DNA of 64,000 nt from positions 1,951 through 65,950 of the forward strand of contig JALLOG010000001.1 of assembly GCA_027717645.1 (NCBI GenBank), given 5' to 3'. The notes under the pieces were generated by a model. That model was not told where the DNA came from and ran no database searches. It saw nothing but the letters and a program-made list of their open reading frames with translations. Below are positions 48,881-54,945 of the stretch, in pieces. Within the stretch, counting starts at the first letter, position 1, and the number at the start of each line of letters is the position of its first letter. A program made the translations under genes and the position numbers. The stretch is from Desulfobacterota bacterium AH_259_B03_O07. Its GTDB lineage: Bacteria > Desulfobacterota_D > UBA1144 > Nemesobacterales > CSP1-2.

Positions 48881-49744
48881 TTAAAGTCTATGCCAACCCG
48901 ATATTCCTTTGACTAAATATACTTTGAACTTTGAGCTATCTTTGATGTAGTTATAAATAATACTTGCCTCTTTTTTCTCTTTAAAGGCAGCGAAGACGGT
49001 CGGACCGCTGCCAGTCATAGATACTGCTCTAGCTCCGATATCGATTAACCTGTCTTTTAGCTGTTTTATCTCCGGGTATACTCCAATAGCAGCTTTTTCT
49101 AGATCATTCCAAAGTGGAAACTTTCCGTTTCTAAACATCGAAATAGTGTTTTCAATATTTTCAAGTCTTAATTCTTCTTTATCGGTCTCTTCCCATTGTT
49201 CATAGATTTTTCTGGTTGATACTTCAAATCCGGGGTTAATAATCAGATAGTGAAATAGAGGGAAATCTCTTATTACGGTGATTTGTTCTCCTATTCCCTC
49301 TGCTATCGCGCTCCTGCAATTTATAAAAAGAGCTACATCGGCCCCGATTTTGGCTGAGGTTTTAAGGAGTTCATCTTGGGTAAGTTTCTTTGTTATTTTA
49401 TTTAAGCCTACCAGGACTGCTCCGGCGTTACTGCTCCCACCACCAAGTCCTGCCCCCAATGGTATTGTTTTCTTAATAGAAATTCTAACCTTGAAACTTA
49501 GCCTAGATTCTTTAAGAAAGAGATCCGAGGCCCTCCATGCAAGATTTTCATCTCCCGAAGGCAATTTAAGCCCTTTTGATTGAATTTCGATTCCTACCCC
49601 ATCAAAGATTTCAATCTTAATCTCATCAAATATATTTACTGGCTGCATAATTGATCTAATTTCATGGTATCCGTCAGGCCTTTTGCCAAGGATTTCCAGT
49701 GTCAAATTAACCTTAGCAGGTGAGAGTAGGGTAATGTTATTCAT
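48881..49744 (-). CDS. ispE: 4-(cytidine 5'-diphospho)-2-C-methyl-D-erythritol kinase
   Basis: SPAKVNLTLEILGKRPDGYHEI and IPLGAGLGGGSSNAGAVL (GHMP motif). Confidence 0.92.
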   Translation of the reverse strand: MNNITLLSPAKVNLTLEILGKRPDGYHEIRSIMQPVNIFDEIKIEIFDGVGIEIQSKGLKLPSGDENLAWRASDLFLKESRLSFKVRISIKKTIPLGAGLGGGSSNAGAVLVGLNKITKKLTQDELLKTSAKIGADVALFINCRSAIAEGIGEQITVIRDFPLFHYLIINPGFEVSTRKIYEQWEETDKEELRLENIENTISMFRNGKFPLWNDLEKAAIGVYPEIKQLKDRLIDIGARAVSMTGSGPTVFAAFKEKKEASIIYNYIKDSSKFKVYLVKGISGWHRL

Positions 49745-49960
49745 TGAAATTGAACAAATATTAGGTAATAATGAATTAATTCATTTTTTTCCATTATATC
49801 GAGCTAAAAGAATTCCAAACTAGTATGGCTTTTCTCTTTATTATATAATTGCTTGACATTAAATGTTTATACTGATTATCATATTTCCCAATTTTGGTAC
49901 AGCATTCAAATAAACTATAATCGTGTCTATGCATTGTATTTTTACATTAAGGAGGAAAAT

Positions 49961-50365
49961 ATGAAATTAAAAAAATGGGTTCTGTTGGGATTAATAGCAG
50001 TTGTACCACTTTTAAATCAGGGTTGTTGGGCTGCGGCAGCTGGAACGGTGGGTGTAGCAGCCGGTGCTGGAACTATTGCATACATTAAAGGCGAGCTTAA
50101 GGCAACCGAAGCCTATTCCGTACCTGACGTTTGGATAGCAACAGAGAAAGCAGTTGACGAGATGCAATTGATTGTGACCGAGAAAGAGCACGACGTTACA
50201 GCAGGAAGACTTGATGCCTATACTGCTGATAACCAGAAGGTACGCATAAGCCTTAAAAGACATGGTGATAACATTACTGAAATAACGATTCGAATTGGAA
50301 CTCTTGGTGACCAAGAACTCTCCCGTTTTATTTTATCAAAGATACAGAAGAATCTAAAAGGATAA
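49961..50365 (+). CDS. DUF3568-like lipoprotein (copy A)
   Basis: AGGAGG RBS. MKLKKWVLLGLIAVVPLLNQGC carries the lipobox. The C-terminal 91 aa are 89% identical to 52137..52412. Confidence 0.75.
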   Translation: MKLKKWVLLGLIAVVPLLNQGCWAAAAGTVGVAAGAGTIAYIKGELKATEAYSVPDVWIATEKAVDEMQLIVTEKEHDVTAGRLDAYTADNQKVRISLKRHGDNITEITIRIGTLGDQELSRFILSKIQKNLKG

Positions 50366-50400
50366 ATAAATCTTACAGACCTAAGCTTGAATATTAAATC

Positions 50401-50580
50401 TTAATTCTTCAGGTCGGTTAAAGCTGAAAATTTAGCACCATACCAGTCAATATAATCGCCAAGTCGTTTTTCGATGAATTCTATTTCTTTATCTGTAAGT
50501 TCTCTTTCTAGTTCCTGATCAGCTACGTTTTGTAAGTCATCAACATTGATGAAATAAATAACCCTATTTTTTGTTTTCAT
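50401..50580 (-). CDS. small acidic protein, family copy 1 (59 aa)
   Basis: My translation: MKTKNRVIYFINVDDLQNVADQELERELTDKEIEFIEKRLGDYIDWYGAKFSALTDLKN. It is a paralogue of 52446..52640 and is 1 aa below the ORF-track cutoff. Confidence 0.6.
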   Translation of the reverse strand: MKTKNRVIYFINVDDLQNVADQELERELTDKEIEFIEKRLGDYIDWYGAKFSALTDLKN

Positions 50581-50687
50581 AATTTTTAACCTTTATTAAT
50601 TTAAAGACGATTTCTGATATTGTGCATAAATTATACAAAACAGAAACTTCTTGCAATCATATAACAATCCAACCTAGTTGTGATACT

Positions 50688-51074
50688 TCATAATCTTTTT
50701 TCCTTATTTAAATACTGAATTATTTTATCTACAAATTTCTTTCCATTCTTAAGTATTCCTTCTGCCTCCACTTTGGTTATAACGAATGTATGATCATAGT
50801 CTCCTAGCTGTCTCTTTTCAAAAGCTCTATTTAGTTCCCTGCTCATTTCCTTTGCAAGAATATCTGTTTTGATGAAATGTTTTCCGAAAGCAGAAATCAC
50901 ACCTTTGTGAGACGAGAATTATAAGTTCTTACTAAGCAATGCTGCTTGAGCACAATACAACATCGCATAGTATGTTCTTGAAACTGAAGATTCGTAATCT
51001 CCATCCTTGAGAAGTACTTCTGCACTTTTGATATATCTTTTAGCCCTTTTAACTAGGGATTCTATTTCTTTCAA
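50688..51074 (-). pseudogene. HEPN-domain toxin gene with in-frame TAA at codon 52
   Basis: The TTG start overlaps the MNT stop (GCTTGA). The frame reads KEIESLVKRAKRYIKSAEVLLKDGDYESSVSRTYYAMLYCAQAALLSKNL-TAA(50919-50921)-FSSHKGVISAFGKHF...KRQLGDYDH (R-x6-H). Confidence 0.75.
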
Positions 51075-51385
51075 GCAGATATTCCTTCTCTCCGAACATT
51101 TATAAGTAGTGGGCTTTTTACTGTGGAATAGTCCTCTTCGGAGATGGGATAAACGAAGAGTAATACGCCATATTCTAGATTGATATCGGTAATGATGTTG
51201 ATCATTCTATCAACCTCTTTTCCAGGAATAACTTTCCCTTGGAGAACAATAAGCAGATCAATGTCTGATTCTTCTGTTGCATCACCTCTCGCCCATGAAC
51301 CATAGAGAACGATATCTTTTAATTTCTTACTATATAGTTTTTCAACTTCAGCTCTGAATTCATCAAGTATTTTATTTATTTTCAT
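51071..51385 (-). CDS. minimal nucleotidyltransferase (MNT) antitoxin
   Basis: LYGSWARGDATEESDIDLLIV (GSxxRGD...DxD); 104 aa. Confidence 0.88.
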   Translation of the reverse strand: MKINKILDEFRAEVEKLYSKKLKDIVLYGSWARGDATEESDIDLLIVLQGKVIPGKEVDRMINIITDINLEYGVLLFVYPISEEDYSTVKSPLLINVRREGISA

Positions 51386-51528
51386 AATATTGTCTCAAAA
51401 ATTTCACTCAATTTGTTAACCTTGGGATATTCGTTAGTGTTTTCTGGTTCTACAACCTCTTTTATTGCTTCTCTAACATAAAAATCACAGTGGATAAATA
51501 TACTTAATTTATGTTTCACTTCAATCAG

Positions 51529-51624
51529 TTAGCAATAAGTAAGTTCTCTATCTAATTCCTGTTCGGCTACATTCTGTAAGTCTTCAACATTTAAGGAATA
51601 AATAATCCTATTTTTCGTTTTCAT
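51529..51624 (-). pseudogene. truncated copy 2 of the small acidic ORF (first 28 codons only)
   Basis: MKTKNRIIYSLNVEDLQNVAEQELDRELT, then unrelated sequence and a stop. The ATG lies 4 nt after the HicB-like stop. Confidence 0.65.
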
Positions 51625-51628
51625 AATT

Positions 51629-51802
51629 TTAACTCCCATTGTTTTTGTTTAATTCTTCGATGGTTGCTAAATACGATTTTATTGCATCTCTTATCTTTTC
51701 TAAAGCTTCTTCTGAATCTCCCTGCGACCAGCAACCACGTAATCCAGGACACCAAACAGAGTAACCCTCGTCGGTCTTTTTGAGATTGACCTTATATCTC
51801 AT
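51629..51802 (-). CDS. HicB-family (UPF0150) antitoxin-like protein, 57 aa, no HicA partner seen
   Basis: My translation: MRYKVNLKKTDEGYSVWCPGLRGCWSQGDSEEALEKIRDAIKSYLATIEELNKNNGS. AAGGAG RBS upstream. Confidence 0.65.
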   Translation of the reverse strand: MRYKVNLKKTDEGYSVWCPGLRGCWSQGDSEEALEKIRDAIKSYLATIEELNKNNGS

Positions 51803-51965
51803 AACGTATACTCCTTAATGTCTTTGTAGATGAAGTTAATATCTTAGCAATTTTATTAGACTTAAACGAGCTGATTTTATACGGCTTGCTAAAGTGTTTC
51901 TATTTTCATTTTACTGCATAATACTAGGTTTAAGTTTTCCGAAGCAATCCGTACAACAAAGTCTA

Positions 51966-52412
51966 ATGGATCGTTGGCGTGGCGCTATTAAATTAAAAAT
52001 ATGGTTTCTTTTAGGATTACTCGGAATTATACCACTTTTAAATCAGGGTTCTTATACGTTTAGTCCGATGGGGGATGTAGTGGTACCATTAGTTAGACAA
52101 ATTCATGTACCTCCTGGAACAGTTGCTTATGTTACGGGTGAGCTTAAGGCAACCGAAGCTTATTCAGTATCTGACGTATGGATAGCAACAGAGAAAGCGG
52201 TTGACGAGATGCAATTGGTTGTGACGGATAAAGAGCACGACGTTACCGCAGGAAGACTTGATGCCTATACTGCTGATAATAAGAAGGCACGCATAAGCCT
52301 GAAGAGACAAGGTGATAACATTACCGAAATTACGATTCGAATTGGGATATTCGGAGACGAAGAACTATCTCGTTTTATTTTATCCAAGATACAGAGGAAT
52401 TTAAAAGGATAA
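51966..52412 (+). CDS. DUF3568-like protein (copy B), lipobox Cys and ancestral ATG lost
   Basis: The ancestral ATG AAA TTA is now ATT AAA TTA, and LLNQGC is now LLNQGS. A new upstream ATG (MDRWRGAIKLKIW...) keeps the ORF open. Confidence 0.55.
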   Translation: MDRWRGAIKLKIWFLLGLLGIIPLLNQGSYTFSPMGDVVVPLVRQIHVPPGTVAYVTGELKATEAYSVSDVWIATEKAVDEMQLVVTDKEHDVTAGRLDAYTADNKKARISLKRQGDNITEITIRIGIFGDEELSRFILSKIQRNLKG

Positions 52413-52445
52413 TCGCTATTATTACTGCTGTTCTAAGATATATAT

Positions 52446-52640
52446 TCAATTCTTTGATCCTAGTTCGTTTAGATCATTTAAAGCTAGGGTTATTGTTCCA
52501 TACCAATCTATATAGTCATCAATCCGGTTTTCAATAAATTCTATTTCTTTATCTGTTAGTTCTCTGTCTAGTTCCTGATCAGCTACATTTTGTAAGTCTT
52601 CGACATTGATGGAATAAACTATCCTTTCTCTTGCACTCAT
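52446..52640 (-). CDS. small acidic protein, family copy 3 (64 aa)
   Basis: MSARERIVYSINVEDLQNVADQELDRELTDKEIEFIENRIDDYIDWYG... with a GGAGGT RBS. It lies 76 nt downstream of the EVE-nuclease gene. Confidence 0.65.
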   Translation of the reverse strand: MSARERIVYSINVEDLQNVADQELDRELTDKEIEFIENRIDDYIDWYGTITLALNDLNELGSKN

Positions 52641-52716
52641 GGTTTTATACCTCCATTGTTACGAGTTTAATATTTAACTCATAGTTGTAGTCAGCAAGAT
52701 GCACACTTTCATAAAA

Positions 52717-53586
52717 TTATCTTTTAAAAATACCTAGAGCTCGCTCCAAATCTTTGTAATCCCTTTTCTTTTCAAGCAACTCCTTAATTGAGGTGATATC
52801 AATAAATCGCATTTGATCTGCTACTTCGTGAAAGGTTCCCGATAGCAATTCCTCGTACTTGCTCTTATCACCCATGGTTGCAACCAGAAAAATATGACTA
52901 TTCCAAAGGTCGAAAGCATGTTTAAGTTTAGCCATCGCATGATAAATGTCTCCACCGATTTGTACTTCGAACACAAACGTGGGAACCGAACGCTCGACCC
53001 TGCGCCAAACAACATCAAGGCGTGTACTTTCTAGTGCATACTCCTCATCAGCAATGTAGCCTTGAACACGACCTATCTCTGCCAAATAAGCTTTTAAATC
53101 ATCATGTTTAATTGCGCCGGGCTCAGTTGTAGCTCTGTCTGCGACTATGGGCAAAATGGTAGTTTCGGTTAGAGGCTTTAAATCCAAGGCAACTCTTGCA
53201 GCATTTACTTCTTCAATAGGGTAGCACTGAAAGACCATTCTGCTTATCATCTGTAAATCATGTGAGGTATATCTGCGAGACTTCCATAAGCTGGGGGGAA
53301 GACAATACTCAATATCGAATTCAAAGCGGAGCGGCCAAATTACTTCATTTCTCTTTATTTCATCTGGCCAGAGAGGATTCGTCTGTCTGAACTTTGTCAC
53401 CACATGTCCAAAACCAATTATTCCATGTACTGGTTTGGACACGTAGAAAAGCAAACCATCTCCTTCACGGAGCATGCTCCACAAAGACCTGAGCTCTCGA
53501 AAATCCTTTAATCCCCAAAGGTTGCTATTTTCAAAAGCTACTTTCCAGTTTTTCTCAGATCCGACTACAAGCCAGAATTGATGCAT
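52717..53586 (-). CDS. EVE/PUA-like domain fused to a PD-(D/E)xK-like (restriction-endonuclease-fold) domain
   Basis: N-terminus: FWLVVGSEKNWKVAFENSNLWGLKD...LREGDGLLFYVSKPVHGIIGFGHVV...VIWPLRFEF. C-terminus: EYALESTRLDVVWRR-x9-FVFEVQIGGDIYHAMAKLKHA (E186, D191, E207-x-Q209). Confidence 0.55.
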   Translation of the reverse strand: MHQFWLVVGSEKNWKVAFENSNLWGLKDFRELRSLWSMLREGDGLLFYVSKPVHGIIGFGHVVTKFRQTNPLWPDEIKRNEVIWPLRFEFDIEYCLPPSLWKSRRYTSHDLQMISRMVFQCYPIEEVNAARVALDLKPLTETTILPIVADRATTEPGAIKHDDLKAYLAEIGRVQGYIADEEYALESTRLDVVWRRVERSVPTFVFEVQIGGDIYHAMAKLKHAFDLWNSHIFLVATMGDKSKYEELLSGTFHEVADQMRFIDITSIKELLEKKRDYKDLERALGIFKR

Positions 53587-53631: not shown

Positions 53632-54945
53632 TCAGATATATTCTCCTTTATATGCCCAATCTAATAATTCGATTGGATGGACCGTTTTAATATTTAGGCC
53701 TTCTTGTTTGATCCCTTTTTGAATCTGGAGTAGGCAGCCTGGATTTCCAGCAACAAGCAACTCAGCGTTGGTTTCTTTCAGATTTTCGATCTTACGATTA
53801 AGCAATTTTTCTGACATCTCAGGTTCAATTAGGTTGTAAATTCCTGCACTTCCACAACACAGCTCTGATTCTGGCATCTCGACAAATTCTATACCAGGTA
53901 TTTGTTTAATTATTTCTCTTGGTTGGATTTTTATCCGCTGGGCATGGGCGATATGGCATGCGTCCTGGTATGTCACTCTACATTTTAATCTTTTTAATTC
54001 TCCACTAAGGCCTATTTCCGATAAAAATTCCATTACGTCTTTCGTTTTCTGGCTTATCTTTTCCGCCCGATTAGCGTAGTTGGGGTCATCTTTTAGGATT
54101 TCTCCATATTCCTTCATTGCGGAACCACATCCAGCGGAGTTTACAATTATTGTATCAACACCATGTTTTTCAAATACGTCTATATTAGATCGGGCGAAGT
54201 TACGTGCTTCAGATATTCTTCCTGAATGAAGAGAAAGTGCACCACAGCAGCCTTGATTCCCGGGAACGATTACCTCACAACCGTTTTCCGATAAAACTCT
54301 AATAGTAGCCTCATTTGTTTTGGGAAAGAGAATACTCTGAACACATCCGGTAAGAGTTGCAACTCTATGGCGTTTTGTTCCTTTAGCTGGCATAAAATTA
54401 GGCATAGATGAAAATAAATTTGAGGAATTAATTTGAGGTAACATTAGATCCATTGTGGCCAGTTTCTTAGAAAGCTTGAGGAGAATCCCAGTAGACTCGA
54501 CCAAGCGCCTGAGTCCAGTTGCTTGATACAAATAAAGAAATGGAAGAAGAAATCGGAGTCTCTTGGGATAAGGAAAAATGGAAAATAATATAGCACGTTG
54601 AAGCTTATCGGTAATAGGTCTTTCGTAACGTCTTTCAATTTGTGATCTTGCGGCTTCTATAAGCCTTGAATAATCAACTCCAGATGGACATGCTGGCTCA
54701 CATGCCATACAGCCAAGACACATGTCCAGATGTTTAACTAAAGATCCACCCATGGGGATCTTTCCCTCTAAGGCTGATTTCATGAGATAAATTCTCCCTC
54801 TGGGAGAATCAAGTTCATTTCCCGTTTCTAAATATGTAGGACAGGCAGAAAGACAGAATCCACAATGCACGCAGTCTTTAATGAAGTCCATGCTAGGTGT
54901 GTCAATTTCATCAAATGCTTGAAAGTTTGTAGTTTTCTCTTCCAT
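53632..54945 (-). CDS. glcF: glycolate oxidase iron-sulfur subunit
   Basis: CVHCGFCLSACPTY and CLGCMACEPACPSG ferredoxin motifs, plus two CCG-type domains (CCGSAG). Confidence 0.88.
   Translation of the reverse strand: MEEKTTNFQAFDEIDTPSMDFIKDCVHCGFCLSACPTYLETGNELDSPRGRIYLMKSALEGKIPMGGSLVKHLDMCLGCMACEPACPSGVDYSRLIEAARSQIERRYERPITDKLQRAILFSIFPYPKRLRFLLPFLYLYQATGLRRLVESTGILLKLSKKLATMDLMLPQINSSNLFSSMPNFMPAKGTKRHRVATLTGCVQSILFPKTNEATIRVLSENGCEVIVPGNQGCCGALSLHSGRISEARNFARSNIDVFEKHGVDTIIVNSAGCGSAMKEYGEILKDDPNYANRAEKISQKTKDVMEFLSEIGLSGELKRLKCRVTYQDACHIAHAQRIKIQPREIIKQIPGIEFVEMPESELCCGSAGIYNLIEPEMSEKLLNRKIENLKETNAELLVAGNPGCLLQIQKGIKQEGLNIKTVHPIELLDWAYKGEYI

Follow-up and report, generated by a model that had tools for sequence, protein, structure and literature searches.

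FAM, a widespread family of small proteins with an acidic core encoded behind exchangeable restriction endonuclease genes

The window analyzed here, a 64,000-nt stretch of contig JALLOG010000001.1 (Desulfobacterota bacterium AH_259_B03_O07), carries three minus-strand copies of an open reading frame (ORF) for an acidic protein of approximately 60 residues, for whose family we use the working name FAM. Read on the minus strand from glcF to ispE, that is, from high to low coordinate, the locus contains a candidate EVE-nuclease gene, FAM copy C, DUF3568 copy B (plus strand), a HicB-like ORF, FAM copy T, a gene for an MNT protein, a HEPN gene, FAM copy A and DUF3568 copy A (plus strand). Comparison with approximately 115 FAM loci, 35 from species-representative genomes and 80 from metagenomes (designated with labels starting with L), indicates that the gene immediately preceding FAM is generally a restriction endonuclease gene, and that these genes belong to several unrelated families.

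The three copies are located where the original prediction had placed them, with the middle one, copy T, at 51529..51624 up to its stop codon. The codon counts were also reproduced: over a 42-codon core, copies A and C are separated by 10 synonymous changes and 8 replacements, their nucleotide divergence is 15.9%, and the core of copy T diverges by 17.4% from each of them. The previously indicated range of 10–17% does not apply to the whole gene, with 39 changes in 174 nt (22%) between A and C. A formal calculation of the ratio of nonsynonymous to synonymous substitution rates (dN/dS; Nei-Gojobori) agreed with the purifying selection deduced from those counts, with values of dN 0.187, dS 0.831, and dN/dS 0.225 for A versus C, and dN/dS of 0.04–0.28 over 18 scorable pairs with relatives. 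The middle copy had been described as truncated; it is indeed interrupted by a TAA codon, but it shows no clean cut, because its frame goes on for 49 codons down to position 51382. A clean truncation by insertion was consequently rejected. The first ca. 90 nt of copy T are 83–86% identical to copies A and C, whereas identity drops to about 50% in the remainder, which retains a weak residual likeness. Judging from the sequence, copy T became a pseudogene through a nonsense codon, and two-thirds of it, on the 3′ side, diverged or were replaced; the same comparisons indicate that copies A and C are maintained by purifying selection and that the middle copy is dead. Finally, the description of the product as strongly acidic fits copy C, but less so copy A (Table 1).

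As already noted from the sequence alone, FAM does not belong to a recognized family: there was no meaningful match in Pfam, NCBIfam, PADLOC or PHROGs, and a Pfam scan of 135 diverse members at E ≤ 1 retrieved only scattered chance matches (pre-PUA_NIP7 in 13/135, rve_2 in 11/135). Homologs are nevertheless abundant beyond this locus: a word-indexed search retrieved 56 clusters built at 90% identity, with identities of 60–80%, and an exhaustive profile search retrieved 762 clusters built at 50% identity, of which 325 had E ≤ 1e-10. They occur in more than ten phyla, with hosts among Dadabacteria, Brocadia and other Planctomycetota, Verrucomicrobia, Nitrospiria, Anaerolineales, Neomarinimicrobiota, Bacteroidia, Thermodesulfobacteriota, Cloacimonadota, and Competibacteraceae, as well as in the archaeon Methanoperedens, whereas searches of viral contigs and of phage and plasmid records gave no match. 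Nearly all the members are stand-alone proteins of 55–100 residues. In the 135 diverse members, residues Y9, D15, Q17, V19, A20, R26, L28, E32, and W46 are conserved in at least 90% of the sequences. The 46-residue core of the family is acidic without exception (mean net charge −6.4); the tails are variable, with 19% of them basic and 18% acidic. Four- and six-fold synonymous sites show near-maximal entropy; since these sites vary freely, it is the FAM protein that is under selection, rather than some element in the DNA or RNA, and on this basis we rejected the existence of a hidden element within the ORF, such as a recombination site or an RNA.

AlphaFold2, applied to an alignment of 135 sequences, predicted a monomer with an extended N-terminal segment followed by helices at residues 13–24, 30–43, and 46–62, with a mean predicted local distance difference test score (pLDDT) of 93.4 and a predicted template modeling score (pTM) of 0.69. 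Foldseek comparisons did not retrieve any match below E = 1 in the PDB, in two separate runs, or among viral structures, and no FAM sequence match was found in the PDB. A ribbon-helix-helix fold, suggested by a shallow first model (an extended N-terminus plus two helices) and by the residue pattern, was rejected in view of an hhalign probability of 0.4% against RHH_1 domains of related genomes, the lack of a sequence match in the PDB, and the three-helix monomer of the deeper model. Taken together, these comparisons indicate that FAM is an undescribed and widespread family of ca. 60-residue proteins with an acidic core.

Several members show peculiarities. The codon for W46, which is the sole tryptophan codon of FAM, is TGA in a Dadabacteria locus (L014:6001-6150) and in the near-identical Neomarinimicrobiota loci L042 and L043 (a single event), and several database members, including proteins P0181 and P0111, stop exactly at this residue although the downstream frame is still FAM-like. 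In its simplest reading, this may reflect a recurrent TGG to TGA decay; leaky read-through was also considered. In locus L173 (positions 128-688, protein P0134), one continuous ORF joins the N-terminal winged-helix domain of Mrr (PF14338) to FAM, and may be the deletion product of an Mrr-FAM pair. Additionally, a diverged FAM paralog coexists with the usual FAM in two arrangements: flanked by the methylase and TdeIII genes, with the usual FAM behind the latter (L073:2161-2364 and L111:4030-4188), and in tandem ahead of FAM, behind an AIPR abortive-infection gene (L055:4740-4943 and L061:3126-3293).

Of the 69 loci with a scorable neighbor in the same strand, about 60 have a restriction endonuclease gene directly upstream of FAM. 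In the genome loci, these genes correspond to TdeIII (10 loci), HNH_2 (three), BsoBI and PDDEXK_4 (two each), CfrBI, EcoO109I, and NotI, and the 54 independent metagenome loci included 19 with TdeIII, seven with HNH_2, five each with BsoBI and EcoO109I, four with EVE, and two with PDDEXK_4. Upon clustering, the 69 upstream proteins separated into 29 TdeIII-like sequences, other nuclease groups with 8, 7, 7, 5, and 5 members, and a few housekeeping proteins (tssG, leuS, aspS). FAM is thus preceded by at least six unrelated nuclease families (TdeIII, HNH, BsoBI, EcoO109I, PD-(D/E)XK, and EVE-nuclease). The second gene upstream mostly encodes an N6_N4 DNA methylase, resulting in the usual gene order methylase, restriction endonuclease and FAM (M-R-FAM). 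The median gap between the upstream stop codon and the FAM start is 12 nt, with 62% of the gaps of 30 nt or less, and in L082 enzyme and FAM overlap by ATGA. Other upstream neighbors are ParE (L015), DUF4160-DUF2442 (L009, L023), AIPR (L055, L061), and, in the window, HEPN; conversely, the genes downstream of FAM are unrelated, lineage-specific housekeeping genes. Most genomes contain a single FAM locus, and have 7–10 further N6_N4 methylase matches elsewhere that are not accompanied by FAM. These contexts support the membership of the ORF in defense or toxin biology that was originally proposed.

Two Planctomycetota genomes have, beside the slot, an N6_N4 methylase that is split or contains multiple stops (G002:C5:2620101-2620824 and G003:C16:341885-342283), whereas FAM is open in both, implying that the restriction-modification (RM) system in the slot decays while FAM persists.

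Sequence identities of FAM and of the enzyme preceding it are largely uncoupled. Many pairs of loci contain FAMs that are 80–97% identical behind unrelated nucleases (TdeIII, BsoBI, EcoO109I), for example 97% identical between L086 (TdeIII) and L094 (BsoBI). Conversely, TdeIII enzymes that are 77–80% identical, from L037 and L040 (the latter a Neomarinimicrobiota metagenome-assembled genome, MAG) versus L082 (a Brocadia-type contig), precede FAMs that are only 52–55% identical. A FAM tree with 45 loci requires at least 18 changes of nuclease family, compared to a possible minimum of 10 and to at least 22 changes with shuffled labels.

The flanks of the locus offer a similar picture. In Brocadia-type loci, four different cassettes are found behind a shared upstream flank, a gene that ends in ...FSRKELIELLTF, and in Neomarinimicrobiota loci with different enzymes homology resumes at the Shine-Dalgarno sequence of FAM. 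The slot of Dadabacteria, organized as glcF-FAM-DUF3568, may be empty (L006, L011) or may contain an NmeDI-type enzyme together with a 50-residue TdeIII remnant (L008, L012), an EVE-nuclease (L060), an EVE-nuclease with FAM, MNT, and HEPN (L051), or a dead HicB (L140). The two Dadabacteria MAGs with the remnant (L008:3611-4984 and L012) contain a 72-residue ORF, a 310-residue endonuclease of the NmeDI_C type, and the C-terminal TdeIII fragment just before FAM, from which we can infer that an older cassette was overwritten by a newer one. Near-identical FAMs behind unrelated enzymes, 80%-identical enzymes before 54%-identical FAMs and the occurrence of one slot per genome indicate that cassettes are exchanged in front of FAM. 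As a description of the genomic arrangement, it is therefore highly probable, from the sequence comparisons, that FAM has its place at the 3′ end of nuclease genes that can be exchanged.

The explanation that best accounts for the whole set of observations, to which we assign a probability of around 0.55, is that FAM is the last gene of an exchange slot and also a generic damper of nucleases. As the sequences show, FAM normally closes a chromosomal slot, a few to some tens of nt behind a restriction endonuclease gene in the same strand or, less often, behind another toxic or defense gene, such as those for ParE, HEPN, AIPR or an EVE-nuclease. The upstream cassette is swapped repeatedly, with persistence of FAM and usually with one slot per genome. 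FAM would be expressed on the same transcript as the upstream nuclease, and in step with it, and would operate as an acidic decoy or buffer damping nuclease or DNA-end-processing activity. In this way the slot would tolerate gaining and swapping restriction cassettes, with a lower cost of carrying or acquiring a nuclease. A generic action, not directed to one enzyme, is suggested because unrelated enzymes are accompanied by near-identical FAMs and an operator common to the loci was not found. Taken by itself, the biochemical part of this proposal, a generic and co-expressed acidic decoy or buffer, is tentative and of low probability. More doubtful is its broadest version, in which FAM would represent a new class of restriction accessory, a universal and position-dependent "safety catch" making one slot per genome permissive for restriction or toxin cassettes.

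The proposed mode of action resembles that of DNA mimics (Ocr, ArdA, T7 gp5.9), which are also small and strongly acidic and act generically on DNA-binding enzymes, a mode that for FAM is only deduced. DNA mimics display surface carboxylates that imitate the DNA backbone and bind in the DNA site of their targets; for FAM, what was observed is the net charge of its core, always negative and averaging −6.4. DNA mimics are, however, weapons of phages and plasmids against the host, whereas FAM resides in the host's own restriction operon and, as described above, was not found in viral contigs or in phage and plasmid records.

Several observations weigh against a generic damper. We know of no generic restriction-enzyme inhibitor of this kind, the invariant polar residues D15, Q17, R26, and E32 point to a specific site instead of mere charge mimicry, and 19% of the FAMs have a tail rich in Lys/Arg. 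FAM is also found 4–27 nt behind housekeeping genes (leuS, aspS) in loci where there is no nuclease, and the tight spacing could merely reflect compact genomes. Likewise, FAM appears to be dispensable, because it is patchy and often decayed among relatives, and its condition as the resident gene is only relative, since its downstream neighbor changes 31 times along the FAM tree, for a minimum of 26.

The main rival, which we consider unlikely, is that FAM is a passive flank with a function unrelated to restriction, and is simply the conserved gene that comes first at the border of a defense hotspot, in which homologous recombination of the flanks swaps the cassettes. Allelic substitution of RM systems, as well as their insertion with long target duplication, was described by Furuta, Abe and Kobayashi (2010; PMC2853133), and these substitution hotspots and the "minimal mobile elements" of Neisseria resemble the FAM slot in having different cassettes between conserved flanks at one locus. 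This is indeed what we found in the loci from Dadabacteria, Brocadia-type contigs, and Neomarinimicrobiota, within each of which the left and right flanks are conserved; additionally, FAM tracks the host lineage and not the enzyme, and it is sometimes found behind leuS, aspS or tssG with no nuclease present. Nevertheless, the flanks of the known hotspots are ordinary, species-specific genes, whereas the right edge of the FAM slot is one small accessory family in more than ten phyla, including an archaeon, which is not expected from a chance edge. FAM is not a lineage-specific core gene, but accessory and patchy: in the family to which the window belongs, only 6 of 15 genomes contain it, and in several cases what they have is just fragments or sequences with stops. 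The predominance of nucleases among the upstream neighbors (about 60/69), the variation of the downstream neighbors with the lineage and the existence of one Mrr_N-FAM fusion also argue against a passive role. A passive flank thus explains the exchange, but not the presence of the same accessory family at the edge in so many phyla.

It is improbable that FAM is a controller-like regulator, that is, a small DNA-binding protein functionally similar to the controller (C) proteins of type II RM systems or to ribbon-helix-helix antitoxins that would set the transcription of the operon ahead. Like FAM, C proteins (C.PvuII, C.Esp1396I) are encoded by a small gene in operon with unrelated restriction enzymes (PMC3874152), of which FAM accompanies at least six families, and they are not needed by every RM system in the genome; one slot per genome would also fit a mutual exclusion of the C-protein type. 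The N-terminal segment of the first model alternates hydrophobic and polar residues (R6, S10, N12), as in a DNA-reading strand, and some FAMs have basic tails. C proteins, however, are basic helix-turn-helix dimers encoded upstream of the endonuclease gene and associated with a conserved palindromic C-box, whereas FAM has an acidic core in all its members, its predicted fold is a monomer with three helices and its gene follows that of the endonuclease. There was no match to helix-turn-helix families, nor any link in Pfam, the PDB or Foldseek to helix-turn-helix or ribbon-helix-helix folds; similarity to the latter, which are β-α-α obligate dimers, was limited to the 0.4% hhalign probability indicated above. 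An operator was sought by k-mer sharing, a procedure of limited sensitivity, in the 4 kb upstream of FAM and in the 220 nt upstream of 42 operons, and only A/T-rich words or sequences conserved through homology of the flanking genes were shared; neither the operons nor FAM had a common operator-like motif in front of them. Neither do the synonymous sites of FAM show constraint.

Even less probable is that FAM is a third subunit of the cassette, in which case M-R-FAM would move as a unit and FAM would partner its own nuclease specifically, either as an immunity-like inhibitor or as a cofactor. The junctions are certainly tight and often overlapping, as with the ATGA of L082, and small, acidic, and helical inhibitors encoded directly after a nuclease gene are well represented by the immunity proteins of E-type colicins and barstar. 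There is also some covariation, because FAM identity is 59.9% within nuclease families and 52.8% between families, and in the TdeIII group the identities of enzyme and FAM are weakly correlated (Spearman 0.32). Immunity proteins, however, coevolve with one cognate nuclease, whereas FAMs that are 90–97% identical are found behind unrelated folds (TdeIII, BsoBI, EcoO109I) and 80%-identical enzymes are paired with 54%-identical FAMs, when a specific binder should covary with its target. FAM also stays intact where the enzyme was lost or reduced to a remnant, and does not match immunity proteins in sequence or fold. Overall, a specific partner or a classical regulator is disfavored by the association of near-identical FAMs with unrelated folds, by the lack of a shared operator, and by the negative results for ribbon-helix-helix and helix-turn-helix proteins.

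Lastly, the possibility advanced in the original prediction, that FAM pairs with the HicB-fold protein, as a toxin neutralizer or regulator, in a two-gene module of the toxin-antitoxin type, can hardly be sustained: although the ATG of copy T does lie 4 nt past the HicB-like stop, the same adjacency occurs in the relative L140 and FAM sometimes follows toxin genes, such as those for ParE or, in the window, HEPN, HicB precedes FAM in only 2 of ca. 115 loci and never with both genes intact (FAM is dead in the window, and in L140 FAM is intact but HicB is dead, with in-frame TGA and TAA), HicA is missing, HicB does not accompany either of the intact copies A and C, and the HicB ORF borrows its final codons (NNGS-stop) from the conserved FAM leader of about 22 nt, which also precedes copy C, where HicB is absent.

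Returning to the window, the features of the slot are collected in Table 1. The repeated unit is larger than the ORF originally described as triplicated, because it includes the DUF3568 gene: a direct repeat of ca. 650 bp, whose arms are 77–89% identical, comprises FAM, a leader of ca. 20 nt, and the convergent DUF3568 coding sequence, and brackets the HicB-like ORF, the dead FAM, MNT, and the dead HEPN gene.

Table 1. Features of the FAM slot in the window, from high to low coordinate, with the direct repeats at the end.
Feature	Coordinates	Strand	Remarks
glcF-like Fe-S subunit	53632..54945	−	Left flank of the slot, conserved in related Dadabacteria
EVE-domain protein	52717..53586	−	289 aa, EVE at residues 3–84; upstream neighbor of FAM copy C
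FAM copy C	52446..52640	−	Intact, 64 aa, net charge −10.5, isoelectric point (pI) 4.05
DUF3568 lipoprotein gene copy B	51987..52412	+	Start ATT instead of ATG; lipobox Cys changed to Ser
HicB-like ORF	51629..51802	−	57 aa, N-terminal domain only; stop at 51629..51631
FAM copy T (middle)	51382..51639	−	Dead; ATG 51624, further in-frame ATG upstream at 51639, TAA 51529..51531
MNT-type nucleotidyltransferase (antitoxin of HEPN-MNT pairs)	51071..51385	−	Intact
HEPN gene	50688..51074	−	Dead toxin gene; one in-frame TAA at codon 52; TTG start
FAM copy A	50401..50580	−	Intact, 59 aa, net charge −4.5, pI 4.6
DUF3568 lipoprotein gene copy A	49961..50365	+	Intact, lipobox LNQGC; convergent with FAM copy A
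ispE (GHMP kinase)	48881..49744	−	Conserved right flank of the slot
Direct repeat, left-hand copy	51986..52657		FAM, leader, and DUF3568 coding sequence
Direct repeat, right-hand copy	49960..50597		FAM, leader, and DUF3568 coding sequence

FAM copy C is preceded by a GGAGG Shine-Dalgarno sequence, 8 nt upstream, and starts 76 nt beyond the EVE-nuclease gene, whereas copy A starts 107 nt beyond the dead HEPN gene, with a promoter-like site at 50684..50656; strong promoter-like sites occur also at 49853..49921, by DUF3568 copy A. The mature parts of the two DUF3568 products show a dN/dS of 0.11 with a dS of 0.43, indicating that the repeat is old or that one of its arms came from a diverged relative. 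Besides the loss of its ATG and of the lipobox cysteine, DUF3568 copy B contains a 7-codon insertion; the low dN/dS that its mature part still shows suggests that it was recently inactivated or imported from a diverged relative.

The EVE-domain protein did not show any match in PADLOC. Its N-terminal EVE domain is a reader of modified bases, and its C-terminal part contains a D...ExQ/K-like nuclease motif. The protein is 84% identical in L051 and accompanies FAM in four further metagenome loci, with the EVE-nuclease/FAM pair recurring in L051, L058, L060, and L065; it is a candidate for a family of modification-dependent restriction enzymes. The HEPN-MNT pair is intact in L051. We considered that the HEPN gene of the window was frameshifted, but this was rejected because its lesion is a single in-frame TAA. 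In a syntenic Dadabacteria contig, a pair formed by a BrnT toxin and a CopG-type antitoxin lies just past ispE (L006:8521-9398), so this neighborhood gathers toxin-antitoxin genes in relatives too.

The ancestral slot could have been organized as glcF-(cassette)-FAM-DUF3568-ispE. In relatives L014 and L051, MNT-HEPN is found directly after FAM. The present order may have arisen when two slot versions that had diverged recombined with each other or, alternatively, by an insertion with long target duplication as in RM units (PMC2853133), with which the window shares the long direct repeats around an inserted defense or toxin-antitoxin segment. Redundant or toxic parts would have decayed later, including FAM copy T, HEPN, and the start codon and lipobox of DUF3568 copy B.

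With FAM as the last gene of an exchange slot and a possible damper of nucleases, the family bears on how cells survive new restriction enzymes and on how RM systems are swapped at fixed loci. The regulation of RM systems is understood for part of them, and involves C proteins, antisense RNAs, and methylase autoregulation. FAM is possibly an accessory of DNA defense in bacteria that has not been described before, and its association with at least six enzyme families in more than ten phyla, its strong purifying selection, and a confidently predicted fold without known neighbors make it a candidate for an accessory function that is still missing. As a mere passive flank, FAM would still be a marker for restriction and defense slots, and for new nucleases, in uncultured lineages such as Dadabacteria, anammox Brocadia, Neomarinimicrobiota, and Methanoperedens.

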